A stretch of 64,000 nt of DNA, taken from NCBI GenBank assembly GCA_023229985.1, contig JALNYF010000001.1:410-64409 (forward strand). Reading direction: 5' to 3'. The position numbers and the translations under genes are program-made. Positions 38,372 to 61,374 of the stretch are shown piece after piece. The stretch comes from Bacteroidales bacterium. GTDB lineage: Bacteria; Bacteroidota; Bacteroidia; Bacteroidales; WCHB1-69. The first letter of the stretch is position 1; each line of letters begins with the position of its first letter. The notes below the pieces were generated by a model. It was not told the DNA's origin and made no database searches. It was given only the letters and a program-made list of their open reading frames with translations.

Positions 38372-38914
38372 TTAAGGCTGAGGTAAGGAGTGATAATCTT
38401 CTTTTTTGATTTGATAAAGGGCTTCCCGCACCCATTCTCCCATCACGATTTTTTCAAAATATCTCACAAATTGCATGCCGGTTTTTTGCGCCACACGCAT
38501 GGAAGGAAGGTTCTTACAATGCATGTAACTTATTATTAAACTGTAATTTAAAGTATTAAAGGCATCATCCAAACAAGCTCGAGCAGCTTCCGTGGCGTAG
38601 CCGTTTCCGCAAAAGTCGGGTCGAATATGATAGCCAATTTCCGGTAGCAGGGTTCCTTCAATATTTTGCATCGTAATTCCGCAATCGCCAAGAAAAGTGT
38701 TATCCTCTTTGCGAATGACTGCCCACAAACCATGTTGATATTGTTGATAATTGGCGATATTCCACGCAATCCATTCTTTTACTTTTTCCACCGAAAATGG
38801 CGCAGGATAATATCTCATGGAATCGACATTTCCCAATACTTTCATCAATTCCGGTTGGTCGTCCGGAATCATTTCCCTCAGCACTAATCTTTGGCTTTCC
38901 AAGATCAATTTCAT
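38372..38914 (-). CDS. GNAT family N-acetyltransferase (RimJ/RimL-like)
   Basis: 'ESQRLVLREM' N-terminus and 'GNGYATEAARA' acetyl-CoA-binding-type motif. Confidence 0.8.
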   Translation of the reverse strand: MKLILESQRLVLREMIPDDQPELMKVLGNVDSMRYYPAPFSVEKVKEWIAWNIANYQQYQHGLWAVIRKEDNTFLGDCGITMQNIEGTLLPEIGYHIRPDFCGNGYATEAARACLDDAFNTLNYSLIISYMHCKNLPSMRVAQKTGMQFVRYFEKIVMGEWVREALYQIKKEDYHSLPQP

Positions 38915-38928: not shown

Positions 38929-40062
38929 TTACAAATAAATATTTTCCTTATTGATAACCGGTTGGGCATAAATGAGCAGAAAAATATCGCGCAATTCATC
39001 GTAATCGCCTATTAATGAATGTAATCCATTGTCCATATATTCAATAAAAGCACTCTTTTCACTTTCCGAATAGAAATCGTGGTATTTATAAGATTTTGCC
39101 CACAAGTCGTGAGCGATATAATTGGTTTTCCATAATTGATAATTGGCATAAACGCGATTATCAATGATTTGTGCCAATTTTTGATATTTGTTGTTTTTTC
39201 CCAATTGATCACAAAACAGTAATTCCTCATTGGTAATGCTGTCGGCAGCAACCAAATGAATGTGTCCTTTGGGTTGTCGGATGCCCTGCAGGATGCTGTT
39301 TAAATCTTCACCGGGAGCTTTTTCGTATTTTTGATATTTAGTGACGAATAGTTCTTGAGTTTTCAAAAAGTCGCAGGGTTCATATTCGTATGAAATTACC
39401 AATGGGGTGATATTGAGTTCTGCAAGATTATCCACAAAAGGTTTTTCGCTGCTGATAGCGAACATTTTAAGCACTGCCATTTCGGTTTTGTCATTTCCGT
39501 CCTTGGTTCTGCCATTGCGTTGAGCTATCCAAACAGATTGTTTTTTTTGGGTGATGGCGTAGCGCATATACGAAGACACTTCGATAGAATTTTTGTAGAA
39601 ATCGCGAATGTTTCCGCCACGCACAATACGGAACATCTTGTTCATTTTCCCAATGTCAATCACAATTTCGCCCTTCATTAAATTACTGCCGAAAGTGATT
39701 TCGGAAGTATCCAAATCAAATTGGAACAACACAATTTGAAGGATGGCAGCGTCCAACAGAATATCGCGATGATTTCCGATAAACATTCCTTTTTTATTGT
39801 TGGACAATTTCTCGAAGCCCTGTGTTGACAAACCGTCGGAGGTCATATTAACGATGGAATGAATGGCTTTTTGCATCACTTGCTTCTGAAATTGCTCAAC
39901 AGTTTGAATTTGCAGGAATTGTTTTTTATAATCTTCAAAATCAACTGAGGGAAAAAGATAAGCAATAATCTGAGAAAAAGCTGGATTATCGGCGACTCTG
40001 CGCACGGCAGCGGGTATTTCGGCATCGATGTAAGGGCGGGTTTTCTCAAAAATATTTTTCAT
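38929..40062 (-). CDS. PlsC-family (glycerolipid/lysophospholipid) acyltransferase-like protein
   Basis: 'FIGNHRDILLDAA' resembles the acyltransferase His-Asp box. Also 'RNGRTKDG'. 377 aa. Confidence 0.5.
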   Translation of the reverse strand: MKNIFEKTRPYIDAEIPAAVRRVADNPAFSQIIAYLFPSVDFEDYKKQFLQIQTVEQFQKQVMQKAIHSIVNMTSDGLSTQGFEKLSNNKKGMFIGNHRDILLDAAILQIVLFQFDLDTSEITFGSNLMKGEIVIDIGKMNKMFRIVRGGNIRDFYKNSIEVSSYMRYAITQKKQSVWIAQRNGRTKDGNDKTEMAVLKMFAISSEKPFVDNLAELNITPLVISYEYEPCDFLKTQELFVTKYQKYEKAPGEDLNSILQGIRQPKGHIHLVAADSITNEELLFCDQLGKNNKYQKLAQIIDNRVYANYQLWKTNYIAHDLWAKSYKYHDFYSESEKSAFIEYMDNGLHSLIGDYDELRDIFLLIYAQPVINKENIYL

Positions 40063-40099: not shown

Positions 40100-41152
40100 T
40101 TAACATGATTTCTTTTGTAAAAGCATTGTATTTTTACAAGATTTAATAAGTTTTTCGAGTTCCATAAATAAATTATGTTCCATTTGTTGAAGGGTAAATA
40201 GAGTGTCGGACAATTCCATCAAAATTTCTTGAGTAATGACGGTTCCTTCGCGGGAGTATCTTCCGGTGATGAGCGAAACGGTGCGCCATGTATCTGCGAT
40301 TTTAACCATTTGTTGAGAAAGGGTGAGGAATGATTCGTTATTAAAAATAGTGGCAGTTTCTTTAAGGAAATCGGCGTAGATATAACGATAGCCGGAGCCG
40401 CCGGAGCCAATTTCCAGCATTCTGAAAAACCAAAGAAATTGGGTTCGCATCTTTGTCGGCTTAAAATGTGCCGCGCGTTTGCGTAAATATTTTGCCAAGA
40501 CACCGATTCCATGCGTCCCGTTCAAAGGAATGGGAGAACGAAGCATACTACTACAAGTTTTTTCGATGCCTTTAATGATTGCTTCTTGGATAGGAGGCGG
40601 CGTGGAGGGCATTTCACTGACATAATACAACTGACCGGAGATACAGGGCAGCGACATATTAAACCTTGCATTTTGCAAGTCATCGGGGGAGATGGTTTTT
40701 AACTCGCCTGTTTTCCCCAAATTATCAACAACTTTGTAAAGCCCATTTTCCTTTTTAACGACCAAAACGCTATGTCCGTTAAATCCAAATCTTTCATATT
40801 GAGATAGATACATTAAATCCTTCACAGATGTCAGCACACCTACGGGAATATTCTGACTGAGCAGCCGGTCTAATTCCCGCATTGATTTTTTCTGCTGAAA
40901 ATATGCAAAATATTTATATGTATAGGGGATTTTCATTCTTTTGAAGAAATTTCGGCAAATACTTCCATGCGGAGGTCTGGCAACCAAAACGTGAGACCCC
41001 TGATATTTGATGATAGAGACGTAGGCGAACATAATGCCGGAACCTATACCCAAAATCATTGGCTCGCTAATTTCGTAGCCGTGATAATGTAGAATATTCC
41101 GAACAGTTCCTGTTTCGCAATGAACAGGCTCTAAAATATCAAATTCTTCCAT
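40100..41152 (-). CDS. BtrH-N-terminal-domain-like protein (papain-like fold, ACP-dependent acyltransferase family)
   Basis: N-terminus 'HCETGTVRNILHYHGYEISEPMILGIGSG' is typical of the BtrH_N family. 350 aa. Confidence 0.5.
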   Translation of the reverse strand: MEEFDILEPVHCETGTVRNILHYHGYEISEPMILGIGSGIMFAYVSIIKYQGSHVLVARPPHGSICRNFFKRMKIPYTYKYFAYFQQKKSMRELDRLLSQNIPVGVLTSVKDLMYLSQYERFGFNGHSVLVVKKENGLYKVVDNLGKTGELKTISPDDLQNARFNMSLPCISGQLYYVSEMPSTPPPIQEAIIKGIEKTCSSMLRSPIPLNGTHGIGVLAKYLRKRAAHFKPTKMRTQFLWFFRMLEIGSGGSGYRYIYADFLKETATIFNNESFLTLSQQMVKIADTWRTVSLITGRYSREGTVITQEILMELSDTLFTLQQMEHNLFMELEKLIKSCKNTMLLQKKSC

Positions 41153-41255
41153 TAATGGTATGATTTGTAAATCATTTATAATCAGTGTTTATCAAAAAAA
41201 CGACTTTTGTAATTCAAGACGGCACTTCTTCAAACTGCTTGTACAAAAGTAGCGG

Positions 41256-41263
41256 CAAAAATA
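41256..41263 (-). promoter_or_regulatory. Bacteroidetes-type -7 box (TATTTTTG on the minus strand)
   Basis: caaaaata on the + strand, 104 nt upstream of the ATG at 41152, in the only sizeable gap (216 nt) downstream of the PKS operon. Confidence 0.45.
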
Positions 41264-41368
41264 CACAATTCTTCCGAATTATGGGAGGACTTATGTTTGT
41301 TCATAAAATTTATTGTATGAATAATAATCAGAGAATTGAGTCGATGATTAGTCAGTTCTTTAACATCC

Positions 41369-42697
41369 TTAATCCTTGATTTTTCTTTTATCAATAAATT
41401 TAATGGGTTTGCGTTTTATTTCGGGCATTTGTATTTTTCTGATGGTATCTATATCATCGAAAATGATATCTGGTGCGACACGCAGTTTGGCGCGAAACCT
41501 GTCTTTTAAATCTTTGACCATTTCTTCATCGTTAGGGAGGCGACTTCCGATTTTGACGGTAACTTGATCGGTGCCGATTTCGTTTGAACAAACTTCGACG
41601 ATGTAATTTTCCACATAATCCACATTATCCAACACATCGAAAATGGTAGCGGGATATAGTGTTGTTCCTTTCAGTTTAATCATTTGGTTTTTGCGACCGA
41701 TGATCGGGCTGATGCGCATTGAGGTTCGTCCGCAGCTGCACGGTTCGTAGTGGAATTTTGCGATGTCGCCGGTTTTAAAACGCAACAACGGCATTCCTTC
41801 GACGCCTAATGTAGTGATGGTTAGTTCACCGATTTCGCCTTCCGCGACAACGTGGTTTTTTTCGTCCAATAGTTCGCAAATAATCAGTTCGGGGTGATGA
41901 TGTCCGCCCATTCCGGCTTTGCACTCGCCAAAAGTGGTGCTCATTTCGGTAGATGCGTAGGTGGAATAGAGGTCAATATCCCATTTTTCCTTAATGTTTT
42001 TTCCTAACAGGTTTAATGAAAAATCTTGTTCGCGCAGATTTTCGCCGATGCAAATGGCTTTTCTAATAGACGAATTGCGATAGTCGATGCCGTGTTCTTC
42101 GGCGTAATTGATTATTTTTAAGATAAAAGAGGGGACGCAAACGATAGCGTTGGGCTTAATGCGATTGATGGTGTCCCATTGCAGTTCGGGGATTCCGTTG
42201 CCCACTCGAATGACACTTGCCCCCATTTTGCGAATGCCGAGGAAATAGGCTAAGCCAGCCATAAACCGTTTGTCGATGGTGGTCATCAGTTGATAGATTT
42301 CGCCTGGGTAGCCCGAAGCACACGTAAAAGAGATGGCTTCGTTGTATGCCAATCGTTCCAAGTCGTGGTCTGTCATGGCAAAAGTGGTCGGGTCGCTCAA
42401 TGTGCCGGAAGTAGTGATATAATCTACAATTTTTGATTTATCTACGCAATAGAAATCTTCGTTGTGTAGCTGCAAGTCCTCTTTTTGCGTAGTCGGAATT
42501 TGCTGTAGATCTTCCAATGTTTTTATTTTGGAAACATCAATTTTGTGTTGCTGAAACAATCGTTGATAAAAACGCGAATGGGCATTGAGATAGTCCAATG
42601 TTTCTTGCATTTTCTTCTCTTGAAAAGATTTAATTACTTCGCGGGGTTGATATTCAATATCAGGAGTAAACGCAGTGAATCGAGGCATCTTTATCAT
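41369..42697 (-). CDS. PaaK/coenzyme-F390-synthetase-like adenylate-forming ligase
   Basis: ANL-superfamily motifs 'ITTSGTLSDPTTF', 'STYASTEMS' and 'RFKTGDIA'. 442 aa, the short PaaK-type size. Confidence 0.75.
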   Translation of the reverse strand: MIKMPRFTAFTPDIEYQPREVIKSFQEKKMQETLDYLNAHSRFYQRLFQQHKIDVSKIKTLEDLQQIPTTQKEDLQLHNEDFYCVDKSKIVDYITTSGTLSDPTTFAMTDHDLERLAYNEAISFTCASGYPGEIYQLMTTIDKRFMAGLAYFLGIRKMGASVIRVGNGIPELQWDTINRIKPNAIVCVPSFILKIINYAEEHGIDYRNSSIRKAICIGENLREQDFSLNLLGKNIKEKWDIDLYSTYASTEMSTTFGECKAGMGGHHHPELIICELLDEKNHVVAEGEIGELTITTLGVEGMPLLRFKTGDIAKFHYEPCSCGRTSMRISPIIGRKNQMIKLKGTTLYPATIFDVLDNVDYVENYIVEVCSNEIGTDQVTVKIGSRLPNDEEMVKDLKDRFRAKLRVAPDIIFDDIDTIRKIQMPEIKRKPIKFIDKRKIKD

Positions 42698-42700
42698 TAT

Positions 42701-43567
42701 TTATTTCATTTTAAAAATTTCATTTACCCATTTCAGGAAAATCCATTTCCATTTTGCGGTATCGCCGGCAATTTCTTCGCTCATTCCATAGCCGTGACCG
42801 CCGGTTTCATACAGTTGGAAAACGTGTTTTATCTTCTTTTCTGTCAATGCTTTATCTAAATTTACACTATTCTGATACATCACAACGGGGTCATCTTTGG
42901 CGGTGACCAAAAAAGCGGGCGGCATATCGTCCGGAATTTGCAATTCCATCGAGAATTTATCTTGTTGTTCCTTGGTGAAGTTGTTGGTTAGTAGGTTTTT
43001 GCGGGAGCGTTGGTGGGCGATACTGTCCTGCATGGATACAACAGGATAGACCGGCACCACAAAGTCGGGGCGCAGGCTCACCGATGAATGAATGCCGAGG
43101 GGAGCCAAATAATTGTCGTTGGCAAATGCGCCGGACATGGTCACCAAATGACCGCCGGCGGAGAATCCCATTGTCCCTACTTGATATGAGTTAATCTGCC
43201 ACTTATCGGCATTTTCGCGTACGTATTGAATCGCGCGTTGCATATCTTCAATCATGGCGGGATGGTGATGTCCGTTCATTCCCACGCGATAGCGCAATAC
43301 AAAAGCGGTAATACCTTGGCTATTCAGCCATTCTGCCACTTCATATCCTTCCGTCTTAATTCCCATCAGGTGACTATAACTTCCACCCGGGCAAACAATT
43401 ACGGCAATTCTGTTGCGATTGGAATCAGGTGCGGGATAGACGTATAACTTGCTACCATAGCGTTTCATGTTGGGCACATCTTTCCACAGCAAGACGGTTT
43501 GGGACTGTCCGAACATGGCGAGGCTGGTTACAACAAGTAAAAGTGTGATAGTCAATTTCTTAAACAT
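42701..43567 (-). CDS. Alpha/beta hydrolase (esterase) with signal peptide
   Basis: Signal 'MFKKLTITLLLVVTSLAMFGQS', oxyanion 'VCPGGSY', nucleophile elbow 'GFSAGGHL', 'DDPVV', 'GGHGYG'. Confidence 0.8.
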   Translation of the reverse strand: MFKKLTITLLLVVTSLAMFGQSQTVLLWKDVPNMKRYGSKLYVYPAPDSNRNRIAVIVCPGGSYSHLMGIKTEGYEVAEWLNSQGITAFVLRYRVGMNGHHHPAMIEDMQRAIQYVRENADKWQINSYQVGTMGFSAGGHLVTMSGAFANDNYLAPLGIHSSVSLRPDFVVPVYPVVSMQDSIAHQRSRKNLLTNNFTKEQQDKFSMELQIPDDMPPAFLVTAKDDPVVMYQNSVNLDKALTEKKIKHVFQLYETGGHGYGMSEEIAGDTAKWKWIFLKWVNEIFKMK

Positions 43568-43584
43568 TATTCATGAATTAATCC

Positions 43585-43962
43585 TTATGCAGGAAAATAG
43601 GTTTTTATTTCATCTTCCGACAAAGTTTGGTAGCGCAGGTTGATAAAATCTCCGTTGGCATCTACCTCAAAGAAAACGCGGAACATCTCTTCGCCATAGA
43701 ATGACAATTTAGAGTTGGTATTGGGATTACATTCAATATAAATAAGTTGTCGGGGATCGATATTTTTTGCTTTACAGATCTGTTTTATAAGCGAGCCGGC
43801 GGCATAAGTGACGGAAGTTCCGGGGTTATCGTGGTATAATTCCGTTACCAATACGACGGTTTGGTTTTGATAAGATACAATTTTTAATCCACATTTTGAA
43901 GGCATTTCCCATTGTCCTTCAAAATCAAAAATTTCATCATAATATTTATCACAAACTTTCAT
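43585..43962 (-). CDS. Hypothetical 125-aa protein
   Basis: An ORF tightly packed in the operon (17-nt and 7-nt gaps). No motif recognised. Confidence 0.5.
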   Translation of the reverse strand: MKVCDKYYDEIFDFEGQWEMPSKCGLKIVSYQNQTVVLVTELYHDNPGTSVTYAAGSLIKQICKAKNIDPRQLIYIECNPNTNSKLSFYGEEMFRVFFEVDANGDFINLRYQTLSEDEIKTYFPA

Positions 43963-43969
43963 AATAGAA

Positions 43970-45253
43970 TTACAATTTTTTAATATTTCTAACTACATCT
44001 TTTCCGAAAGATTTATTTGCCAAATTTCTGTCGCGGGGTATGAAAGTACCGTCTTCCATTTCGCGAAGCATGACTTGCGCAAATAATTTGAACATTTTTT
44101 CTTCTTGAGATTCGTCTTGATAGAAAGATTTCCAAGCATACTCATACAATTCCTGTAATCTTTCGGGGGACATATTTTTCGGTTTGTAAACCACTTGACC
44201 GGCGTTATAATGATTCCAGTCGTGGTCGAAGATTCTGCCTTGTCGCATCAGGTCGTCGTAGGCTTTGGTATGCGGGAATGGTGCGAGGACGGTAAATTCT
44301 GCCAAGTCGAGGTCAATTTTGAGCAAGAAATCAATCAGGCGGAGGATGTCGTCTTCGGTTTGGTTGTCTAATCCGAGGAGAATGGTTCCTTCCACGCCGA
44401 TTCCGTAGTCGTGGTAACGTTTCACGCGTTCTTTGATATAATCGGAGGTGTCATAAACGGCTTGATAGACGTACCATGCGCCGGCTTGTGCGGCGAGGTC
44501 GAGTACTTCCGGTTTATCTTCTATGGTGTGGCTTATCCATTTTTTCTTGAGCGGAATCATTTCCTTAAAGAGTTGCATTTCCCATTCTGTGCTTTGTGCC
44601 AATGAGTTATCAACAATAAAGAGGCGGTTGTTGTCGATGGTTTCCAATTCTTCGATGGCTTTTTCGATGGGGCGTGGGCGGAAGCAGCGACCGCCGAGGT
44701 AGGAGACGGCGCAGGGGTAGCAGCTGAACTTGCAACCGCGGGAAGCATGGAACAGGTCCACCATTTGTACGCCTTTGTGATTGTATAATTCGCGTTTGTA
44801 CAAATCGCGGCGGGCAGGTCCCACCATCTCAATCGGGGGGTGTTTGCCCATAAAGTTATACACTTTTTTCAGTTTGTCGTTACGAAAATCTTCCAAAACA
44901 GCTTCCATTCTGCCTTCGGCTTCGCCCAAAAAAACAGAATCGGCATGCAGTAAGGTCTCTTCCGCATGCAACATCGTTGAAATACCTCCAAATATTACTT
45001 TTTTTCCTTTGGCGCGGAATTGGTCGGCAATTTCCCATCCTCTTTTAACTTGAGTAGATAGCATCATTGAGATGCCCACTATGTCGCAATCTACGTCAAA
45101 ATCAATGGTATCCACATTTTCATCTACAAAAGCCACCTCAACGTCTTCGGGCAGACAAGCCGCAAAAACTACCGGACCGTGAGGAGGAAGATTAAACGTA
45201 GTTTGTCCGGGGAGCTTGTTCCATTTAGGGTAAATTAATTGAAATTTCATCAT
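43970..45253 (-). CDS. B12-binding-domain radical SAM protein (class B)
   Basis: N-terminal cobalamin-binding-type segment ('IVGISMM...KKVIFGG'), then 'ASRGCKFSCYPC' CX3CX2C. The ATG at 45253 overlaps the upstream stop (TGATG). Confidence 0.8.
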   Translation of the reverse strand: MMKFQLIYPKWNKLPGQTTFNLPPHGPVVFAACLPEDVEVAFVDENVDTIDFDVDCDIVGISMMLSTQVKRGWEIADQFRAKGKKVIFGGISTMLHAEETLLHADSVFLGEAEGRMEAVLEDFRNDKLKKVYNFMGKHPPIEMVGPARRDLYKRELYNHKGVQMVDLFHASRGCKFSCYPCAVSYLGGRCFRPRPIEKAIEELETIDNNRLFIVDNSLAQSTEWEMQLFKEMIPLKKKWISHTIEDKPEVLDLAAQAGAWYVYQAVYDTSDYIKERVKRYHDYGIGVEGTILLGLDNQTEDDILRLIDFLLKIDLDLAEFTVLAPFPHTKAYDDLMRQGRIFDHDWNHYNAGQVVYKPKNMSPERLQELYEYAWKSFYQDESQEEKMFKLFAQVMLREMEDGTFIPRDRNLANKSFGKDVVRNIKKL

Positions 45254-48200
45254 CAAATTTTTTTATTTTTATTTTCTATTATACAATCATAAATTTTGTC
45301 ATCGGGCACATGTTGTTCATATACCAGATTCTTGGGTACGGACGTGCAAAATTGGGCGATAGAGAGCAATTCTTCGTCTTCATCAACCGCCGTAATGTGT
45401 AAGTCCTTTTTTATCAATGCCGCCAATAAGGTACGTTCCCCTTGTCCGCAATGTTTGATTAGCACATTTCCCCTGTTAGGCAACGAAGCGACAAATTGTT
45501 CGTTCCCTTTTCTATTCTTCAACACAGAACGTGCTTTTTGTGCCACTTCTCTTCCTTTATAGATGTAATTATGCCAAACCAAATCTTGATAATAGGCAAC
45601 ATTTTCAACGGTTTGTGACAATTTTTCGTATTCTTCTTTGAACAATTTTCTAAACAAACGAGCCATTTCCAAGGGTTGAATATTCTTTCTAAAATGAATA
45701 TCTTCAGAGTTTATTCTTTTTAAGATAGAAACAGTGACACCCCCTTTTCGTAACATAAATTCTGTTTTAGGCAGAACATAGCCGGTACCATGAATGACAA
45801 TGGGCAGTATATCCAGCTGTAGTTGCTGTGCCAACCGAAATGCGCCCTGATGAAATCGCAAAATGGAAAAATCTTCGGAGCGAGTGCCTTCGGGGAAAAT
45901 CAGAATGGAATACCCTTTTTCAACCATCTTTTTCAATTTCGAGTAATTTTCTTCCACCCCATCCCCCACAGGAAGGAAATCGGCGTACCGAACAATCATA
46001 CGATAGAACGGCATATTCCACGCCCAACGATTGGTGACAACGATGATTTTGGGCGAGAGCAGCAACGTGTAAAGTAAATCCAAGTGCGATTGGTGATTGC
46101 AAATAATGACGGAGGGTTGATGGAAGCGTTCGTTGTGCGGGTTAATCAGTTTAAACTTAACCTGCAACATCATTTTAGATAGAATGCGGAGTGTTGCGCA
46201 TAATAATATATGGTAGAAATTCTTGAGTTTTTCATTTTTATAACCGATGATGTAGAAAAAAGAGGTAAGAATTGTCAATAATACTGATGAAATGGCAAAA
46301 ACGATAAAAGACACAATGGTTTTGAGCAGGTTGAGCAAAGTAATCGGCATCAAACGCAATTTATCTTTTTTGCGGGTCAGCCATCTGAAAATGAGTGGAG
46401 GAATAATGTATGCCATCATTACAACGGAAATCATTCCCACAATCGTAACCTCAGCCAATGAGCGCATGGCGGGGTGCTTGGCAAAAATCAGCGTGCCAAT
46501 TCCAATAAACATGATCAAAGAAGAGAGAATAATGCTGTTTTTGAACTGTGCCAGCATTTTTTTTCCGGTGCGATATTCATACATTACCCCTTCCGTAACA
46601 AAAATGGTGTAATCGTCTCCCTGTCCGAAAATGAATGTTGCCAAGATAATATTCACAATATTAAACTTAACATCAAAAATTCCCATCAATCCGAGAATCC
46701 ATATCCACGCCAAGGTAAGGGGAATGAACGACATCAGCGCGATCTCGATTCTGCCGAAAGAGAATAAGAGAAATACCAAAACGATCAATCCGCAAAAGAA
46801 GAGAACATAGTTAAAATCGCCGGACAGAGCCTCCACCATTCGTGAAACGATCGAAGAATCTGTAAAGGCAAAGACATGTTCATTTTGCTGATTCAGTCTG
46901 TTCTCAATGTCAGCCTTTCGAGATTTATCAACAGATAAAACATTATAAATCATAGATTTATCATTATCTGTCATGACATAGCTTTCAGCTAAGTTTTGCA
47001 AAATAGGTTGAAAATATTCCGGTGGTTGCGGGGAGTACTCTTTTTCAATTATTGCTTTGCAAGGGGAAAAAGCTTCCGCTGTAAAACCGGCATTTTGGGC
47101 AGCGACCTTCAAATCATCCCAAAATTTTGCGTCTCGCCCCTTCCAAAATTCATTCCATTGTTGCAACCGGCGTTTCTGCATCTCGACAGAAGGCAAGAAG
47201 TCCCCGATGCCACTGCACTTTTTGATAGTGCTATCTGCCAATAATTGAGCAAGTTGTGGCTGTATTGATTCATTATTCTGTAAGGCTTCATTAAAAGTAT
47301 TTCCCTCTGCAACACAATAAATGGTTTGAACCGTGGTATCGGATTCCGCCAATATTTCATCAAAAGCGGCTTTTTGATCAGGTGTCATGTAGTTGATTTT
47401 GTGCATATTCGTTTCAAATGAAGTTTGAAAACTGAAGACAAAAAATACACACGTCAGCAGCAAAATAATGATCACAAACCATGGATGTTTTTCGGGGGAT
47501 AAATTGGCAATTTTTCCGAAGGATAATTTGTACGTTTTTTGCACAGATGCAACTCTCTTTTTCCCTAAAAAATGGGGAAGAAAAATGAGTACAAAAATGA
47601 TGGTGCCTATGAGTAATAAGGCGGCAAAGAGTCCCAAATCGCGCATGGCATCGGAACTAATGAAAAGAAGACTCAAAAATGCCCCGACCGTGGTGAGATT
47701 CCCAATCAATAAAGGGTTGACGATATCTTTGATAATCTGTTCTTTATTATCTGTTTTTTTAAAATGGGAAAGAAAATGAATGGGATAATTGACGGCAATA
47801 CCGAAAATGATGGAGGCGGCACCCACAGCAATGATTGAAATGGGATTTTTGAAAAGTACGATGATGCCTAAGGCTATAACTCCGCCAAAAAGAATGGAAC
47901 AGCCTATCAATAAGATACTTCTGAAACTTCTATAGTAGAAAATTAGCAATCCGATGATCAGGACAAGTGCCAACAATACGGCAATGAAACTGTCTTTTTT
48001 TATTTGTTGCGAATTGGTCAGCGATACCAATGATGCCCCGAAAGGGCTCATGTCCACTTTCCCGTTCATTGTTTTTTCAGCAGTAGCAATCGCTTTCTCT
48101 ATATGGTCAATCAGTATGGCATTATTAGATGTTTCGCTTACAGGATATTGAGAAGTCACCACTACGATGGCTTCATCACCCGTTTTATTAAAGATATAGC

Positions 48201-48813
48201 CATTTTCTTCATGATATTGGTCGTTGAGTTGAAAATTGCTCAAATTTTTCAAAATATCGGAAGAAAAGAAAAGCGGGTCGGAGAGAATGACGGTTTGCAT
48301 GCTGCCGATAGGGGAAGCCAGAATACTTTTATCAATTTCAAGTTGTCGGGCAATATGCTCTTTTGTCAACAGTGTGTCCATACGCCGGTAATCTTGTTCA
48401 GTCAGGAAATAGGGCATATTTTGCACGATAAAATTGGTAATTTCTCCAATTTGTTGTTCATTTACTTCGTAAAGAATATCTTTGATAAGATGTGCAGTAT
48501 CGTTGGTATTGAGTTGTGTGACCAAGCTATCGACTGCATTTGTAAGTAATTCGTAATCAACTTCTTGAGCGGTATTGTCTGGCGTATTTTCTTTAATATT
48601 AATGACGATACGGTTAGAAGCTCCAATATGTTGATAGGCGTAGCTAACTCGTTTATTATCATCATTTTGAGGGAAGAAGCTGCTAATATCTTCCACGAAA
48701 TCGAGTTTTGTAATTCCCCAAGCTCCGCTTCCAACCAGCAACAGTAAAAAGAGCCATAGGAGGAGTGGCTTTTTTTCGAAGAAATGGTAAATGGAAACGA
48801 AGAAATGACGCAT
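45253..48813 (-). CDS. Fusion protein: MMPL/RND-like exporter + lysophospholipid acyltransferase + C-terminal methyltransferase-like domain
   Basis: About 12 TM segments in two bundles. The acyltransferase box 'CNHQSHLDLL' with 'FPEGTRS'. A C-terminal 'VLIKHCGQGERTLLAALIKKDLHITAVDED' resembles SAM motifs I/II. Confidence 0.75.
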   Translation of the reverse strand: MRHFFVSIYHFFEKKPLLLWLFLLLLVGSGAWGITKLDFVEDISSFFPQNDDNKRVSYAYQHIGASNRIVINIKENTPDNTAQEVDYELLTNAVDSLVTQLNTNDTAHLIKDILYEVNEQQIGEITNFIVQNMPYFLTEQDYRRMDTLLTKEHIARQLEIDKSILASPIGSMQTVILSDPLFFSSDILKNLSNFQLNDQYHEENGYIFNKTGDEAIVVVTSQYPVSETSNNAILIDHIEKAIATAEKTMNGKVDMSPFGASLVSLTNSQQIKKDSFIAVLLALVLIIGLLIFYYRSFRSILLIGCSILFGGVIALGIIVLFKNPISIIAVGAASIIFGIAVNYPIHFLSHFKKTDNKEQIIKDIVNPLLIGNLTTVGAFLSLLFISSDAMRDLGLFAALLLIGTIIFVLIFLPHFLGKKRVASVQKTYKLSFGKIANLSPEKHPWFVIIILLLTCVFFVFSFQTSFETNMHKINYMTPDQKAAFDEILAESDTTVQTIYCVAEGNTFNEALQNNESIQPQLAQLLADSTIKKCSGIGDFLPSVEMQKRRLQQWNEFWKGRDAKFWDDLKVAAQNAGFTAEAFSPCKAIIEKEYSPQPPEYFQPILQNLAESYVMTDNDKSMIYNVLSVDKSRKADIENRLNQQNEHVFAFTDSSIVSRMVEALSGDFNYVLFFCGLIVLVFLLFSFGRIEIALMSFIPLTLAWIWILGLMGIFDVKFNIVNIILATFIFGQGDDYTIFVTEGVMYEYRTGKKMLAQFKNSIILSSLIMFIGIGTLIFAKHPAMRSLAEVTIVGMISVVMMAYIIPPLIFRWLTRKKDKLRLMPITLLNLLKTIVSFIVFAISSVLLTILTSFFYIIGYKNEKLKNFYHILLCATLRILSKMMLQVKFKLINPHNERFHQPSVIICNHQSHLDLLYTLLLSPKIIVVTNRWAWNMPFYRMIVRYADFLPVGDGVEENYSKLKKMVEKGYSILIFPEGTRSEDFSILRFHQGAFRLAQQLQLDILPIVIHGTGYVLPKTEFMLRKGGVTVSILKRINSEDIHFRKNIQPLEMARLFRKLFKEEYEKLSQTVENVAYYQDLVWHNYIYKGREVAQKARSVLKNRKGNEQFVASLPNRGNVLIKHCGQGERTLLAALIKKDLHITAVDEDEELLSIAQFCTSVPKNLVYEQHVPDDKIYDCIIENKNKKI

Positions 48814-49581
48814 TTATGAATTGATTTTAAATAATTTACGAAAAATCATAGATGGATAGCCATAAAAAATGGCGATGAGGCAGAGGATTGTATTCAACAG
48901 AGAGATGCGGAAGAAGTCGGCTCCGGGTCTGAAATGGGAGACACGTTCGGACAATGGCGGGTAGTAAACGTTGATGGGAACGGGCAGGATTTTGATATTT
49001 CGCCAAGCGCAGCGAACCAATATTTCCAATTCCGTTTCGTAGCGGTTGGTAAGAAAGTTCATATTTCCCATTTTTTTCAAAGGATAAACTCTGAATCCGG
49101 ATTGTGTATCGGGTAGAAAGTGTGCAGTTTGCAGCGCAAACCAAAAATTGGAAAAGCGGTTGGCAAAAGTATTTTTTTGTGGCATATTTTCGTGTTTCAT
49201 TCCGCGGCTGCCCACCAATAAGGAATGGGGCTGTTTTTCAATTGCCGTTACAAAGTTCTCAATGTCGGCAGCTTGATGTTGTCCGTCGGAATCCATGGTG
49301 ATGGCGTAATCAAAACCTTGTTGGATGGCTTCGCGGAACGCCATTTTCAAAGCATAACCTTTGCCACGATTCGGATAATATTTGATGGCTGTAATACGGG
49401 AACCGAATTCATTCAGAATGATGGCGGAAGTATCGGTAGACCCATCATCTACCACTATCAGATGGTCGGTAACGGACAGTACGGAATCAATGACCTCTTT
49501 CAACGAGCGGGAGTTGTTGTAGGTTGGAATGACAACGCAGATTCGCAATTCGTGCATAATTTGTAAAAAATCATTACTCAT
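48814..49581 (-). CDS. Family 2 glycosyltransferase (ArnC/GtrB/DPM1-like, C-terminal TM)
   Basis: 'VVIPTYNN', 'VVDDGSTD', 'MDSDGQH', and a C-terminal hydrophobic 'LLNTILCLIAIFYGYP'. The start is ambiguous (ATG at 49593, 49581 or 49557). Confidence 0.8.
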   Translation of the reverse strand: MSNDFLQIMHELRICVVIPTYNNSRSLKEVIDSVLSVTDHLIVVDDGSTDTSAIILNEFGSRITAIKYYPNRGKGYALKMAFREAIQQGFDYAITMDSDGQHQAADIENFVTAIEKQPHSLLVGSRGMKHENMPQKNTFANRFSNFWFALQTAHFLPDTQSGFRVYPLKKMGNMNFLTNRYETELEILVRCAWRNIKILPVPINVYYPPLSERVSHFRPGADFFRISLLNTILCLIAIFYGYPSMIFRKLFKINS

Positions 49582-49951
49582 TTCCAATATCATTTAGTTC
49601 CAGATTCATTTTGCAAAATTGCACATCTTCGCAGAAAATGGTTGATTTGACCAATAAAAGCCCATTTGATGCTTCAAAAGAGAGTTGACAATCAACGATA
49701 GGATATTCATGGGGTTTCAGGAGTTTGGTAAATTTAATATTTTTAGCTTTGGTGATTCGGAGTGGGCGTTCATAAAATGTTTCCGACAATTCACAGCAGA
49801 GTTGTACCAAACATACTCCGGGTGTAATCGGATTGGAGGGGAAATGACCTTCATAAATAGCAAAATCGGGGTTGAGTTTTACCTTAAATGTTACAACGTC
49901 CGCTGCGGGAGTATCGCATGAAAGAATAGAAAATAGACGATTAATCAGCAT
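49574..49951 (-). CDS. Hotdog-fold 3-hydroxyacyl-ACP dehydratase (APE-cluster type)
   Basis: 'EGHFPSNPITPGVCLVQ' FabA/FabZ-type active-site motif. 125 aa. Confidence 0.7.
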   Translation of the reverse strand: MLINRLFSILSCDTPAADVVTFKVKLNPDFAIYEGHFPSNPITPGVCLVQLCCELSETFYERPLRITKAKNIKFTKLLKPHEYPIVDCQLSFEASNGLLLVKSTIFCEDVQFCKMNLELNDIGNE

Positions 49952-49956
49952 TTTGA

Positions 49957-50319
49957 CTATTTTAAAACAATAAGAATTGCTCCGACAATAGCGAAGATAA
50001 TCCCTATCCAGCGTGTAATCGGAATTACTTCATGAAGTAGAAACTGAGCCGCAAACATTCCGATGATGTATCCGAAGAAAACAAGTGAATAGGCGAGGCT
50101 GAAGTCATTGTTTCTCAGAATATACATCCACAATATCCACGCGGAAAAAGCCAATATCCCCGAAGCGGCAAATTGCCATGTGGTCAGTACATTTTTAAAA
50201 TAATCTATTGACCAGGAAAATTTTCCAAATAAGATAACGGATTTTTGTAGAAGCAATTGAGCTCCTACCAGGAATAAAGATTGTAATAAAACCAAAGGTA
50301 TTAGGACAGGTAATTTCAT
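49957..50319 (-). CDS. Small 4-TM DMT/EamA-half (ArnE/ArnF-like) membrane protein
   Basis: 120 aa with four hydrophobic helices. ATGA overlap with the upstream gene. Confidence 0.55.
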   Translation of the reverse strand: MKLPVLIPLVLLQSLFLVGAQLLLQKSVILFGKFSWSIDYFKNVLTTWQFAASGILAFSAWILWMYILRNNDFSLAYSLVFFGYIIGMFAAQFLLHEVIPITRWIGIIFAIVGAILIVLK

Positions 50320-51377
50320 ATTTTTGATAATAACATTAATGAATGATCTTTATTTTGGAAATGGTTATACACCAAAACGTGGCTTATGTTTGTGGAGCGG
50401 GCAACGGAGTTATAGAGCAGGTGTGGTGGAATAAGATTGTTTTTCAGGCACATGGAGGCGGTGTAGGCTCCGAAAGAGGAGGCACTATACGATTCTCCAA
50501 AGACATGTTTATACCAAACGACCGGAATATTGGGGAAACAATTTTGCGAAATTTGATGATAAACCGCATCATTCTCAATATCTCCGTTCAATCCCATCAC
50601 TACCGCATCGATTTCGCCGAGTGCTATCCCGTTTTTTATTAGCATGTTTTCCATTCTTGACCGAATTTCGGTGATGGATGGTGCATACATCAATTCAATA
50701 TCATTCAGTTGGCACAAAGCATCTTGATTCGGAGAATCTGTTAGTAGTAATGCTAATGAGCAACTTCCTGAGATAGAACCAATGGTGTCAGCTTTTTTTA
50801 AAGAATCAATCGTAAATGGATCTTTTTTCCAATAGCCGAGTTTCCCCAGCATGTTAAAATAGTCGGGTGTCATTTCGTCGTGGCCGCCTACTAATGCGGA
50901 ATGAATATCGCCTACTTTCATTTGCACAAAGGCGTCTAACAAACTGCTTTCGAAGGAGGTTCCTCTGTGGGAGTAGGTGCTGTTGTAGCCGTGACATTTC
51001 AGGTAAAGGGCTATTTGTGAGCTGATAGTATTATGGGTGGACTGCATAAAGGCAGTAGGGGGCAGGCAATCTTCGTTATTATCAATAATGGCGTGGAGGA
51101 ATTTTTCTGTATTGTCGATACACCCCAGACCGGTTCCCGAAATGATGGCATCTACATTTTCGAAGTGACTCCTATGAAGAACATCTAAGGAGGTGGTGAT
51201 GGCGCGTTTCATTAATTTGCCCATTCTTCTGGCTTCCATTGGTGAAAGAAAACGTTTGTAATCAGGTTCGATAGATTCGTTGAAAATATTTTGTGGAACA
51301 TGCGGGTTGCTAAACCATTGGTCTGACAACGGTTCTTGGAGTGAGATTTGAGAAATAGCCTGAATGAATGTTTTCAT
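50316..51377 (-). CDS. Ketosynthase-like protein lacking the His-His pair (chain-length-factor-like)
   Basis: Thiolase-like sequence. By-eye alignment puts 'GLNGDIEND' where KS has 'AHGTGT..ND', and 'FGESYSASS' where KS has 'GH..GAAG'. Confidence 0.6.
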   Translation of the reverse strand: MKTFIQAISQISLQEPLSDQWFSNPHVPQNIFNESIEPDYKRFLSPMEARRMGKLMKRAITTSLDVLHRSHFENVDAIISGTGLGCIDNTEKFLHAIIDNNEDCLPPTAFMQSTHNTISSQIALYLKCHGYNSTYSHRGTSFESSLLDAFVQMKVGDIHSALVGGHDEMTPDYFNMLGKLGYWKKDPFTIDSLKKADTIGSISGSCSLALLLTDSPNQDALCQLNDIELMYAPSITEIRSRMENMLIKNGIALGEIDAVVMGLNGDIENDAVYHQISQNCFPNIPVVWYKHVFGESYSASSFGAYTASMCLKNNLIPPHLLYNSVARSTNISHVLVYNHFQNKDHSLMLLSKI

Positions 51378-51381
51378 AGTA

Positions 51382-52584
51382 TTATATTTTTGAAAAGATG
51401 CATGAAGAATCGTTACCGCCGAAACCGAAAGAGTTGGTTAAGATATGGTCAAGGGTAACGTTAGTGACGACATTTTTCACCGGTTCAAAGGAGAGAGATG
51501 GGATTTTTTCGCTAAAATTCAAGTTTGCAGGAATAAAATTTTTCACCATTGCGAGGATTGAGATGACACATTCCAAGCTTCCGGAGGCGCTGGTGGTGTG
51601 ACCGGTATAAGATTTGGTAGAAGATATGGGAGGAATGTTATTCCCGAAGACGCGCATGATGGCATTTCCTTCGCTTTCGTCATTACTTTCCGTGCCCGTG
51701 CCGTGTGCATTGATGTAGTCGATATCAGATGGTTGCAGTTGTGCCGATTTCAAGGCGTCGGTCATGGATAAATAGGCACCTTCCCCGTCCGGAGATGAAG
51801 CGGTTTGGTGGTAAGCATCGCAGCAGTTGGCGTAGCCCGACAGCCGGCAGATCGGTTTGACGTGTCGTTCGGTCGCTGATGTTTCTGTTTCCAGCACCAA
51901 AAAGGCGGCTCCTTCCCCAAGATTAAGACCTTGCCGGTTTTTATCAAATGGCTTGCACAACTCTGGATCAAGAATCATCAGTGAATGGAATCCGTCGAGG
52001 TGAAATTTGCTCAGGCACTCGCTACCGCCCACGATGGCGGCATCTACGCAACCGGACTTAATCAGATTTGCCCCCAAGATGACAGAATTGACGGCTGACG
52101 AACAGGCAGTGGAAATAGTGGTCATCATATCAAATTTTCCCGTATATTCCATTGCCATCATTTCGCAACAAGCTCCGCAGTCGTGCAGGGCGATGTACTC
52201 GGTTTTATAATCTGAATGGATATCTAAAAAATCAATATAATATTGTTCGCTTTTTTCCATGCCCCCTACTGTTGTGCCGGCGATAAACGCGATTCGTTTT
52301 GGACGATTTTGCAAAATATCGGCACTACGTAGAGCTTCATGAAGCGCGGCGCGCCCCAATAGGGAAGTCCGTGTAATCGACAAATTCTTATCGACATGAA
52401 GTAATTCCCGCAACTCATCATCGCTATATGGAACTTCGCCGACGGGTAAATCTGTAAACTTTGTGTTCAAATATTTCATTTTGCCCACAAACGTTTTCCC
52501 CTTCAACAGTGCCTGTTCCGTTTTTTCGACGCCCCAGCCCAGTGCGGAAATGACCCCCAATCCTGTAACGACAATTTTATTCAT
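51382..52584 (-). CDS. Beta-ketoacyl-ACP synthase (KS, Cys-His-His)
   Basis: 'STACSSAV', 'NAHGTGTESND', 'KSYTGHTTSASG', 'NSFGFGGNDS'. Confidence 0.85.
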   Translation of the reverse strand: MNKIVVTGLGVISALGWGVEKTEQALLKGKTFVGKMKYLNTKFTDLPVGEVPYSDDELRELLHVDKNLSITRTSLLGRAALHEALRSADILQNRPKRIAFIAGTTVGGMEKSEQYYIDFLDIHSDYKTEYIALHDCGACCEMMAMEYTGKFDMMTTISTACSSAVNSVILGANLIKSGCVDAAIVGGSECLSKFHLDGFHSLMILDPELCKPFDKNRQGLNLGEGAAFLVLETETSATERHVKPICRLSGYANCCDAYHQTASSPDGEGAYLSMTDALKSAQLQPSDIDYINAHGTGTESNDESEGNAIMRVFGNNIPPISSTKSYTGHTTSASGSLECVISILAMVKNFIPANLNFSEKIPSLSFEPVKNVVTNVTLDHILTNSFGFGGNDSSCIFSKI

Positions 52585-52842
52585 TTATTTGGTTCTGTGT
52601 GCTTGGATATACTCTGCCATAATGCGAACCGATTTAAAAATCTCTCTTCCCTCGGACGCATTTGCCAACTTAATACCGTAGTTTTTTTCCATCATAACGA
52701 TAAGTTCTAAAGCATCAATTGAATCCAACCCTAATCCTTCTCCAAACAAAGGAGCATTTTCATCAATATCCTCAGGTTTCATACCTTCTAAATTGAGGAC
52801 TTCAATAATTTGTTTCTTTAATTCTTCAATTAATTGTTCCAT
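52585..52842 (-). CDS. Acyl carrier protein
   Basis: 85 aa with 'LGLDSIDALELIV' phosphopantetheine site. Confidence 0.9.
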   Translation of the reverse strand: MEQLIEELKKQIIEVLNLEGMKPEDIDENAPLFGEGLGLDSIDALELIVMMEKNYGIKLANASEGREIFKSVRIMAEYIQAHRTK

Positions 52843-52845
52843 AGT

Positions 52846-53475
52846 TTAATAATATATTTGATTAATATTTGTTTCATTCAATTCTATAATACTTTTGTCG
52901 GGGTGGGTGGTAATTACCATCATCATCACATCGCAATTCTCTTCATAATAATCTATCCAACCACATAAAGCATATTCAATTTGCGGATTTACCTCAAAAG
53001 TTTTAATAACATTTGTTATAAAAGATGGTGTGTTAAATAGTTGCTCAATATAAAAAGATGTTTCTCCCTGAATCTTATATTTAATTGCCAATTCTCCAAT
53101 TACAATATTTGGCAGAGTATAGACAAAAACCGAAGGGCTGGGGAAATAATTATTCTCGTTTTGTATCGTGGCTTGATACTCGGTATCGTCATCTAACGAA
53201 GATACGCTGTTCATTCCGATAATTGCCCAGTTGGTTTTAATTTCATCGGGCTTGACCATAAAATTCTGCATGATCGGTTCGGCAGCCAAAATGCCCGATT
53301 TACACAATTTGTCCATTTTGAAAAACTTGGGATAGTTCATATTCAATGCTCTATAAATGTCGTGTAACCATAGATCCTGACTTTCCGGATTGCGCAACAG
53401 CATCTTGTCTCCGTTGACGCAGAACTCGGTTGGGGTTATTTTTGAATAAGAAGCTATATGATAAGTTTTCATCAT
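52846..53475 (-). CDS. Hypothetical 209-aa protein embedded between ACP and KS (possible thiolase-like fragment or docking protein)
   Basis: An ORF 3 nt from the ACP gene and 9 nt from the KS gene. No catalytic motif recognised. Confidence 0.45.
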   Translation of the reverse strand: MMKTYHIASYSKITPTEFCVNGDKMLLRNPESQDLWLHDIYRALNMNYPKFFKMDKLCKSGILAAEPIMQNFMVKPDEIKTNWAIIGMNSVSSLDDDTEYQATIQNENNYFPSPSVFVYTLPNIVIGELAIKYKIQGETSFYIEQLFNTPSFITNVIKTFEVNPQIEYALCGWIDYYEENCDVMMMVITTHPDKSIIELNETNINQIYY

Positions 53476-53484
53476 TGGATTTTC

Positions 53485-55521: not shown

Positions 55522-55533
55522 AGCAAAATCAGG

Positions 55534-56622: not shown

Positions 56623-56650
56623 ATAATATTGATATTTATTAACTTCATTA

Positions 56651-57550: not shown

Positions 57551-57554
57551 TATT

Positions 57555-57797: not shown

Positions 57798-57799
57798 AA

Positions 57800-59023: not shown

Positions 59024-59042
59024 ATAAGTGTTTATGAATTAA

Positions 59043-59771: not shown

Positions 59772-59772
59772 C

Positions 59773-61281: not shown

Positions 61282-61366
61282 TTGCACATTAATTTACGCT
61301 TTCATTTTTAAATTTCTTGAAATAGGGCATGTTACACTATTTCATTTCTGTCAAAAAATGAGGTGG

Positions 61367-61374
61367 CAAAGATA
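61367..61374 (-). promoter_or_regulatory. Bacteroidetes-type -7 box (TATCTTTG on the minus strand), candidate promoter of the PKS operon
   Basis: caaagata on the + strand, 86 nt upstream of the ATG at 61281. It is the only such box I see between 41.4 and 61.4 kb in intergenic sequence. Confidence 0.5.

Follow-up and report, generated by a model that had tools for sequence, protein, structure and literature searches.

A conserved radical SAM, small-protein and esterase module accompanies flexirubin-type pigment clusters in anaerobic Bacteroidota

Few bacterial biosynthetic clusters are as widespread as those for aryl-polyenes (APE) and flexirubins, whose chemistry is established for aerobes and enterobacteria only. 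The closest described systems are the flxA-flxY cluster of Chitinophaga pinensis and the Fjoh_1075-1110 cluster of Flavobacterium johnsoniae (Schoner et al. 2014, PMC3992019), which served as our reference clusters. Between FlxU and FlxY, both of these carry FlxV, a flavin adenine dinucleotide (FAD) oxidoreductase, and FlxW, a peptidase-C45 acyltransferase; C. pinensis alone adds FlxX, a phosphopantetheinyl transferase, and neither cluster has a radical S-adenosylmethionine (SAM) enzyme. Here, we analyzed a stretch of 64,000 nucleotides (nt) from an uncultured Bacteroidales bacterium (assembly GCA_023229985.1, contig JALNYF010000001.1, positions 410 to 64,409 of the forward strand), hereafter called the window, which between FlxU and FlxY instead carries genes for a radical SAM enzyme, a protein of 125 residues and an esterase. 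Comparison with related genomes gives good support to the conclusion that anaerobes conserve this radical SAM/125-residue/esterase module as an accessory of their flexirubin-type clusters.

The original prediction had measured the locus against the APE genes of E. coli, for which the flx/dar system of C. pinensis and F. johnsoniae is the proper reference. The window encodes a FlxA tyrosine ammonia-lyase (59773-61287; 835.7 bits against an NCBIfam cut-off of 700), a FlxB reductase (408.5 against 340), a FlxJ methyltransferase (55534-56622; 617.1 against 560) and a FlxY ligase (712.1 against 520). Since all four exceed their NCBIfam cut-offs, we assign the cluster, on sequence grounds, to the flexirubin-type APE pigment operons, in this case of an anaerobic host. 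The FlxJ match also bears out the class I methyltransferase that had been predicted at this position. In common with both reference clusters, the window has FlxA, FlxB, type II ketosynthases, acyl carrier proteins (52585-52842 and 57555-57797), an LpxL-like acyltransferase, FlxJ, a family 2 glycosyltransferase (GT2, here of the polyprenyl-phosphate-sugar type), the FlxU exporter/acyltransferase and the FlxY ligase at the 3' end. The ketosynthases are three in number and are accompanied by a protein resembling a chain-length factor (CLF); ApeP/ApeI-type dehydratases, a thioesterase and an ArnE/F-like small membrane protein were also recognized in the operon.

The ligase (41369-42697, minus strand; 442 residues, PaaK/F390-synthetase type) aligned through its residues 14-438 with positions 1-424 of the 424 positions of the NCBIfam model NF053551 (FlxY_rubin), and it shares strand and cluster with FlxA, the ketosynthases and the acyl carrier proteins. 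FlxY of C. pinensis (Cpin_1877) has been purified and is a 4-coumarate-coenzyme A (CoA) ligase in vitro, which takes several cinnamate-type acids and has a kcat/KM that is 121-fold higher with 4-coumarate than with cinnamate (PMC3992019). The window protein has the same PaaK/F390-synthetase architecture as Cpin_1877 and the same place in a tyrosine ammonia-lyase cluster, but DarH-like and 377-residue acyltransferase genes come after it. We assign it as FlxY, a predicted 4-coumarate-CoA ligase, and the gene, so far 'PaaK-like', should be annotated under this name. The suggestion that a PaaK-like enzyme activates the tyrosine ammonia-lyase product is thus upheld by an equivalog-level match together with the C. 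pinensis biochemistry. Its description as uncharacterized falls away, since FlxY function is already known, and with both a tyrosine ammonia-lyase and FlxY in the cluster the alternative of a benzoate starter is needless.

All four predicted open reading frames (ORFs) were found in place on the minus strand: the radical SAM gene (43970-45253/45256; 427-428 residues), the 125-residue gene (43585-43962), the esterase gene (42701-43567; 288 residues, with the Pfam domain BD-FAE) and the FlxY gene. They are real genes under purifying selection. The spacings between them are 7, 17 and 3 nt, and the radical SAM gene begins with an ATG that overlaps, as TGATG, the stop codon of the FlxU-like gene before it, which encodes an MMPL exporter fused to an acyltransferase (45253-48813, minus strand; 1186 residues; Pfam MMPL and Acyltransferase). 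Gaps of 3-17 nt and the TGATG overlap suggest translational coupling and a transcript that joins the four genes to those for the polyketide synthase and export; the remainder of the flexirubin-type operon extends upstream over 48814-63154 on the same, minus strand.

A pattern scan with one genome per species detected a close relative of the radical SAM enzyme in at least 588 genomes. The 80 best radical SAM loci were fetched with 10-kb flanks, and the window proteins were mapped onto them by tblastn. Downstream sequence was available at 77 loci and reached at least 4.5 kb at 61, 57 loci could be scored for upstream genes, and 34 loci were of at least 18 kb. They derive from rumen, horse-feces, termite-gut and digester Bacteroidales, from Odoribacter and from Tannerella, including T. 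forsythia, and the families represented include Lentimicrobiaceae, Paludibacteraceae, Rikenellaceae, Prevotellaceae and Marinifilaceae. Directly after the radical SAM gene came the 125-residue gene at 59 of the 77 loci. Among the 61 loci with longer downstream sequence, the 125-residue gene was present at 48, the esterase at 43 and FlxY at 38, the latter downstream of the esterase and with orthologs 63-83% identical; all three stood in this order at 37. FlxU or FlxV was encoded upstream of the radical SAM gene at 39 of 57 loci, and at 31 of the 34 large loci at least one flexirubin/APE gene lay within 10 kb. Synteny with APE/flexirubin genes across Bacteroidota, which had been set beforehand as the comparison able to overturn the prediction, was therefore observed.

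The gene order around the module varies. In Odoribacter, FlxV, the radical SAM enzyme, a 123-residue protein, a secreted protein of 185 residues and the esterase are encoded in this order, as a sub-operon of their own that runs divergently from the genes for the tyrosine ammonia-lyase, the reductase and the ketosynthases. Four more loci were found through the 125-residue family. At two of them (L088 and L090), genes for a DarH-like protein, an acyl carrier protein, a sulfotransferase, the radical SAM enzyme (71% identity), a 123-residue protein (36%) and a FlxY-like protein follow one another, and the tyrosine ammonia-lyase gene lies 9 kb away. At the third (L089), the radical SAM gene (72%) precedes genes for a 130-residue protein (41%), a thioesterase, two enoyl-CoA hydratases and a KASIII-like protein, and at the fourth (L091, in a genome labeled Spirochaetes) the pair adjoins LpxL-like and FlxU-like genes. 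The radical SAM/125-residue pair stays adjacent while the rest of its neighborhood changes. Collectively, these comparisons indicate that the two proteins are probably functionally coupled.

A different arrangement was seen in Tannerella. In T. forsythia (L069, 10001-16818; NZ_RQYN01000001.1) the radical SAM gene (81% identity) is the first of an operon that continues with a flavodoxin-like protein of 306 residues in the DarA position, DarB (543 bits), DarG, DarH (398 against a cut-off of 300) and an ABC transporter. Two other loci (L072 and L082) have the same order, and none of the three has an adjacent 125-residue or esterase gene. At a further locus (L074), the dar genes precede the radical SAM gene, with the 125-residue gene close by on the opposite strand. 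With its gene at the head of the T. forsythia dar operon, the enzyme is linked to each of the two halves of flexirubin biosynthesis. The idea that it replaces the DarA aromatase in anaerobes was rejected as the main explanation, because Tannerella keeps the flavodoxin-like gene in the DarA position beside DarB in addition to the radical SAM gene. Replacement of FlxV was likewise rejected, because most related loci have both FlxV and the radical SAM enzyme.

The best explanation we can offer for the module, held tentatively and a little short of even confidence, combines a pigment starter, a two-protein radical tailoring step and a periplasmic esterase. Family membership, together with the published biochemistry, gives good support to a first step in which FlxA makes 4-coumarate from tyrosine and FlxY converts it to 4-coumaroyl-CoA, which primes the type II polyketide synthase. 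To judge from the synteny, the radical SAM enzyme and the 125-residue protein would act as a two-protein unit, the small protein serving as an adaptor or substrate presenter by means of its flexible SKLSF loop. With low confidence, we propose that this unit would carry out an oxygen-independent radical tailoring of the carrier-bound aryl-polyene or of the lipid anchor, most likely a cobalamin-dependent C-methylation of an unactivated carbon, distinct from the ring methylation assigned to FlxJ. Following export by the FlxU-like MMPL protein, the Sec-exported esterase would act in the periplasm and hydrolyze an ester bond of the pigment-lipid or of the sugar head group, and the DarH-like and 377-residue acyltransferases may be part of the same functional tail. 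A more far-reaching proposal, which we consider doubtful, is that the radical SAM enzyme and the 125-residue protein constitute an unrecognized two-component radical SAM system specific to anaerobic Bacteroidota, in which the small protein presents the substrate or is modified on its SKLSF loop, and whose oxygen-independent step would define a structurally distinct 'anaerobic flexirubin' class among the membrane pigments of gut, rumen and oral bacteria, T. forsythia included.

Several observations weigh against this explanation. The radical SAM gene was found without an adjacent 125-residue gene at 18 of 77 loci, among them those of T. forsythia. At one locus (L032, 10004-12795), the radical SAM gene, the 125-residue gene and a longer esterase gene (373 residues) form a stand-alone unit, the neighbors of which are a DNA cytosine methylase/O-methyltransferase block, a TonB receptor, EamA and a transketolase, with no polyketide synthase gene within 10 kb. 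L088 and L090 lack the esterase and yet keep the radical SAM enzyme, the 125-residue protein and FlxY, and the window itself holds neither DarA nor DarB. As for the radical SAM enzyme, its B12-binding match falls one bit below the Pfam gathering score, no curated B12 radical SAM family, the methyltransferase families included, was matched above its cut-off, and its AlphaFold2 model is poor, with an overall predicted local distance difference test (pLDDT) score of 66. Among solved proteins, the nearest in sequence as well as in fold is AprD4, which is a dehydratase and works without cobalamin and together with a separate reductase.

The sequence CKFSCYPC, which had been taken for a radical SAM motif, is indeed a canonical CX3CX2C motif (C175/C179/C182) and is invariant in 19 homologs. 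The N-terminal part of the protein matched the Pfam B12-binding domain PF02310 over positions 11-120 of 121 (E 2.3e-7; 31.1 bits against a gathering threshold of 32.1), and PF02310 is listed for homologs of the enzyme in precomputed Pfam tables; the Radical_SAM match (E 4.3e-5, 24.2 bits) was also below its gathering threshold of 29.5. Curated B12 radical SAM families gave partial matches far below their cut-offs, the best being TIGR04013 (61 bits against 251). TIGR04072 scored 47 against 360 and the AprD4 model 20 against 500, the matches to HpnJ, BchE and HpnR were weak and partial, and PhpK and the MgmA type likewise fell short of their cut-offs. When PDB sequences were searched, the best match was AprD4 (6fd2, E 0.01) and the next was MgmA (9ccb, E 0.016), and a family profile retrieved nothing from the PDB beyond these two, at E values of at least 0.01. 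The AlphaFold2 model, for which the alignment was shallow and its sequences over 80% identical, is confident in its N-terminal Rossmann domain; because of the overall pLDDT of 66 we left it out of residue-level arguments on cobalamin binding. Foldseek placed AprD4 first (E 1.7e-12), then MgmA, TsrM, CysS, MiaB and RimO, so that the fold neighbors span cobalamin binders (TsrM, CysS, MgmA) as well as AprD4. The architecture is class-B-like, with a B12-like Rossmann domain followed by a radical SAM barrel, in agreement with the class B assignment made earlier. No riboswitch, a cobalamin riboswitch included, was detected by an Rfam scan of the window.

The radical SAM enzyme, with more than 6200 homologs, is assigned by its sequence to an uncharacterized and very highly conserved family. 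It is the most conserved cluster protein in the 80 loci, at 80-88% identity across several Bacteroidales families, whereas in the same genomes the ketosynthase KS400 has a median identity of about 65%, FlxY one of 72% and FlxU one of 53%; since the 80 loci are the best radical SAM matches, its range is somewhat inflated. Even in the most divergent contexts found, identity was still 70-78%. Such conservation suggests constrained contacts with macromolecular partners.

We consider cobalamin-dependent C-methylation the favored reaction for this enzyme, a tentative assignment to which we give slightly less than an even chance. An alternative is that the enzyme is not a methyltransferase at all and, like AprD4, uses no cobalamin, catalyzing instead a radical dehydration, a dehydrogenation or a carbon-carbon rearrangement. 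An APE-lipid could be the target, for example at its glycerol or amino-sugar head group, and FlxV, an FAD enzyme, could serve as reductase partner where it is present. This would fit the first rank of AprD4 by sequence and fold and the B12-binding score under the gathering threshold, and FlxV is encoded immediately upstream of the radical SAM enzyme at 31 of 57 loci and jointly with it in the Odoribacter sub-operon. The cluster, moreover, encodes the polyprenyl-phosphate-sugar-type GT2 and the ArnE/F-like protein, and known APE-lipids bear GalNAc-phosphate-glycerol (GalNAc, N-acetylgalactosamine) (bioRxiv 10.1101/2020.12.19.423268). The AprD4 model itself, however, scored only 20 bits of the 500 demanded, the cobalamin methyltransferases MgmA, TsrM and CysS are structurally almost as close, and the B12-binding match spans the whole domain. 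FlxV, for its part, is absent from the window and from many radical-SAM-positive loci, and it occurs in aerobic clusters that have no radical SAM enzyme. We regard an AprD4-like reaction as fairly unlikely.

The 125-residue protein had been described as devoid of any recognizable motif, and scans of Pfam, NCBIfam and PHROGs all came back empty. We found 607 close homologs, every one of them annotated as hypothetical and none with a Pfam domain; identical 125-residue and radical SAM sequences are on record in Bacteroidales metagenome-assembled genomes, and a profile search of 1.84 billion representative proteins gave 405 relatives. Structure prediction yielded a confident AlphaFold2 model (pLDDT 83, predicted template modeling score 0.80) with a three-strand/helix/three-strand/helix fold. 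Foldseek found no matching fold, the best hit in the PDB having E 0.015 with a template modeling score below 0.4 and the best in BFVD E 0.011, and the family profile reached only E 0.61 against PDB sequences.

The family is marked by the signature G-x-W...CGL...ELY..NPG.S.T...P...SKLSF. In 64 radical-SAM-linked members, G16, W18, C24-G25-L26, E41-L42-Y43, N46, G48, S50, P80, S84 and L86 are invariant, F88 is 98% conserved and S87 and Y89 are each 95% conserved. The loop SKLSFY (residues 84-89) is the sole stretch of the model below pLDDT 50, and the SKLSF motif is missing from distant relatives without a radical SAM link. A Cys-ligated metal site is unlikely, because C63 and C78 vary. By a hydropathy heuristic, none of 61 orthologs has a signal-like N-terminus. 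We infer that the protein is an obligate cytoplasmic partner of the radical SAM enzyme, acting as an adaptor, a substrate presenter or, less likely, a substrate.

The last of these roles would have the radical SAM enzyme modify a residue in the exposed SKLSF loop, as the related enzymes MgmA and Mmp10 do on methyl-coenzyme M reductase (MCR), the modified protein then serving the pigment pathway, for instance as a carrier or cofactor-bearing subunit. MgmA is the second-best solved relative of the enzyme, and TIGR04014, the family of the MCR glutamine C-methyltransferase, is among its weak matches; the pair is adjacent and tightly spaced across very different contexts; and the loop, the only part of the small protein modeled below pLDDT 50, is conserved where the radical SAM link exists and lost where it does not. 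On the other hand, polyketide pigments offer no precedent for such a modification, the radical SAM gene stands without an adjacent 125-residue gene at 18 of 77 loci, and an invariant loop would fit docking or active-site capping equally. We judge a substrate role improbable and retain a role of the small protein as adaptor or substrate presenter as the preferred reading.

Outside the radical-SAM-linked family, distant relatives of the 125-residue protein (P0313, P0331, P0381; L086, 2235-2594) are fused to DUF6166 or lie, as one of them does, in a ParB/RadC-containing small-ORF array typical of mobile elements. The fold thus has a wider, unrelated distribution. Pfam, NCBIfam and PHROGs assigned no usable family to these relatives, the only signal being the fusion to DUF6166, which itself has no known function; intermediate relatives (P0277 and P0253) sit on contigs too short to be informative.

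The esterase matched Pfam BD-FAE (PF20434) with 91.7 bits against a cut-off of 26.8 and remained below the equivalog models PaeX (192 bits against 550) and AxeA1 (166 against 700). It has a PGGSY oxyanion motif and a GFSAGG nucleophile motif; in a 53-sequence alignment the PGG and SAGG parts of these are at least 98% conserved and the F before SAGG at least 90%. The N-terminus, MFKKLTITLLLVVTSLAMFG followed by Q, is signal-peptide-like. By the hydropathy heuristic, 51 of 52 esterase orthologs have a signal-like N-terminus with a positive region, a hydrophobic core and a small residue ahead of the cleavage site, compared to 0 of 47 FlxY orthologs. The sequence [AGS]Q occurs at positions 15-34 in 42 of the 52, and most orthologs have the alanine-glutamine junction that is common in Bacteroidota. 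Export, which had been predicted from the window protein alone, therefore appears to be a conserved property of the esterase. An extra protein of about 185 residues with a signal peptide (ending in AQ before a K) and no family was noted in L005 (11721-12278), L006, L007, L014, L016-L019 and others. It was matched at 19 of 80 loci, lies between the 125-residue gene and the esterase gene at 13 of 61, and is a putative second exported component of the module.

Whether the esterase acts on the pigment-lipid in the periplasm is, in our estimate, an evenly balanced question. It may instead never touch the pigment and free p-coumarate or ferulate from plant xylan in the gut or rumen, thereby feeding FlxY; in a variant of this idea it takes the place of FlxP, the polysaccharide deacetylase of aerobic clusters, with the sugar head group as its target. 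Members of BD-FAE have been described as bifunctional enzymes with feruloyl esterase and acetyl-xylan esterase activity, and among named families those of pectin and acetyl-xylan esterases come nearest to the window protein. A spacing of 3 nt separates the esterase gene from flxY downstream of it, and the C. pinensis FlxY accepts several cinnamate-type acids. Esterase-positive loci are mostly from rumen, horse feces and termite gut, and the oral Tannerella loci have no adjacent esterase gene. As to the variant, neither the operon nor loci L001-L005 showed a FlxP-type deacetylase. Yet the cluster has its own tyrosine ammonia-lyase, so that salvage of a starter acid is not needed, and the esterase accompanies the radical SAM enzyme and the 125-residue protein in the absence of FlxY at five loci (L032, L037, L039, L041 and L044). 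BD-FAE is, in addition, a large family of mixed specificities, and the equivalog scores are all far below cut-off. We judge this alternative improbable.

That the trio is an independent envelope- or lipid-modifying unit which merely sits beside flexirubin genes, with a product other than pigment, we consider very improbable: the trio standing alone in L032 among DNA methylase, TonB receptor, EamA and transketolase genes, the isolated radical SAM genes of L036 and L059 and the mobile-element-like arrays and DUF6166 fusions of the wider 125-residue superfamily are outweighed by the flexirubin/APE genes within 10 kb at 31 of 34 large loci, by the occurrence of the pair with FlxY, FlxU, FlxV, DarH or tyrosine ammonia-lyase in at least six gene orders and, in the window, by the wedging of the trio between flxU and flxY with a 1-nt overlap and a 3-nt gap.

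The four genes had been called the last of the operon, a description that does not hold, since three genes on the same strand follow after an intergenic gap of 216 nt (41153-41368, minus strand), the sole sizeable gap of the operon tail. A convergent gene closes the unit only beyond the third of them, and the operon runs three genes further than had been proposed. The gap contains an AT-rich 9-bp hairpin (41250-41203) and then seven T's (41200-41194), on the minus strand. This inverted repeat and the T's overlap a TACTTTTG motif (41194-41251, minus strand), which we take to resemble the Bacteroides -7 promoter element TAnnTTTG. The fold of the gap has no extra stability compared to shuffles (z = -0.64), no minus-strand terminator was called in it by a consensus scan, and promoter and terminator scans gave no more sites than shuffled sequence; operon boundaries are accordingly set by gene spacing. 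The gap may hold a weak terminator or an internal promoter.

The first gene after the gap (40100-41152, minus strand; Pfam BtrH_N and DUF4872) encodes an acyltransferase that scored 242 bits against a cut-off of 300 with the DarH model NF053550, and we class it as a predicted relative of DarH below equivalog level. It is followed by a 377-residue acyltransferase-like protein (38929-40062, minus strand; weak Pfam Acyltransferase match, E 0.0027) with the motifs NHRD..D and RNGRTKDG, both invariant in the ortholog alignment; it looks like a divergent acyltransferase of the GPAT (glycerol-3-phosphate acyltransferase) type. Orthologs of this protein (42-66% identity) were found in 43 of 80 species loci, mostly straight after FlxY, and at 34 of 61 loci one follows FlxY, encoded on the same strand and at most 6 kb from the radical SAM gene. 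The order FlxY, DarH-like, 377-residue protein recurs in L020 and L034, and in L003, L051 and L052 with an ABC transporter inserted, so the two genes are co-conserved with the module in related genomes. The third gene encodes a GNAT acetyltransferase (38372-38914, minus strand; Pfam Acetyltransf_3, 113 bits) that had no match in any of 85 loci and is probably outside the module.

Genes at the opposite end of the operon and genes missing from it were also recorded. A FadD-type fatty-acyl-CoA ligase of 587 residues heads the operon (61391-63154, minus strand), giving the cluster a second adenylating enzyme, and just upstream of it lies a gene for a 244-residue protein with a type A sorting domain of the type IX secretion system (63167-63901, minus strand). 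In the C-terminal approximately 150 residues of the FlxU-like protein (45253-45700, minus strand), VLIKHCGQGERTLLAALIKKDLHITAVDEDEE looks like motif I of class I SAM-methyltransferases. A class I SAM-methyltransferase-like domain has been reported for C. pinensis FlxU, and no methyltransferase domain was found in the FlxU-like C-terminus with Pfam at E < 0.01; this region may be a third methyltransferase-like domain of the cluster. Searches by tblastn within the 64-kb window detected no FlxV, LolA, DarB or DarG and no homolog of the Tannerella protein in the DarA position, unlike most related loci, which carry FlxV/LolA next to FlxU. Every ORF between FlxU and FlxY is otherwise assigned, FlxW itself not having been searched by sequence. 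The absence of FlxV, LolA, DarB and DarG from the window points to a reduced cluster variant, the product of which may not be a dialkylresorcinol ester. It is probably a flexirubin-like APE lipid, and not necessarily such an ester unless dar genes are present elsewhere in the genome.

A full-text literature search of incomplete coverage returned no description of a radical SAM enzyme, or of such a small protein, in flexirubin-type clusters. Taken together, the cluster type and FlxY are already known, and the radical SAM/125-residue/esterase module, with its orphan enzyme family and orphan fold, appears to be new. At least 588 species-level genomes carry the variant that it marks; they belong to anaerobic Bacteroidota of rumen, gut, termite and oral habitats, the periodontal pathogen T. 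forsythia among them. The module is broadly distributed, very strongly conserved and experimentally tractable. Once identified, its reaction would add an activity to those known for radical SAM enzymes and show the actual structure of the pigments or lipids of these anaerobes, and give a handle on the role of the pigment, for example in protection from oxidative stress or in host interaction.

Among described enzymes, the class B methyltransferases TsrM, CysS, MgmA and those of the TokK type share with the window radical SAM enzyme a B12-binding-like Rossmann domain at the N-terminus, the CX3CX2C barrel and a C-terminal helical region. Foldseek E values for this set range from 1e-10 to 1e-7, whereas sequence similarity is marginal (E of at least 0.01 against the PDB). 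CysS, which acts on a carrier-tethered aryl compound, offers a chemical analogy, but none of these methyltransferases has an obligate 125-residue partner of this kind. AprD4 (6fd2), the apramycin 1,2-diol dehydratase, has the same three-part architecture at 18% identity, its substrate is an aminoglycoside, and its reductase partner is reminiscent of the frequent FlxV neighbor of the radical SAM gene. TIGR04072, the 'lipid biosynthesis B12-binding/radical SAM protein', likewise occurs inside APE/ladderane-type clusters rich in ketosynthases and carrier proteins; the window enzyme is about 22% identical to a TIGR04072-like protein of Odoribacter and belongs to a separate family. The gene for that Odoribacter protein (L005, 3840-4805, minus strand; JAJDGW010000006.1; TIGR04072 300 bits against 360) is a second, unrelated B12-type radical SAM gene placed among ketosynthase and thioesterase genes, and since no FlxJ homolog was found in the L005 cluster, its product may be an alternative methylase. 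PaeX, AxeA1 and the BD-FAE esterases resemble the window esterase in being exported Bacteroidales proteins with an alpha/beta-hydrolase domain and a conserved Ser nucleophile; unlike PaeX and AxeA1, the window esterase is encoded in a pigment operon and not in a polysaccharide utilization locus.

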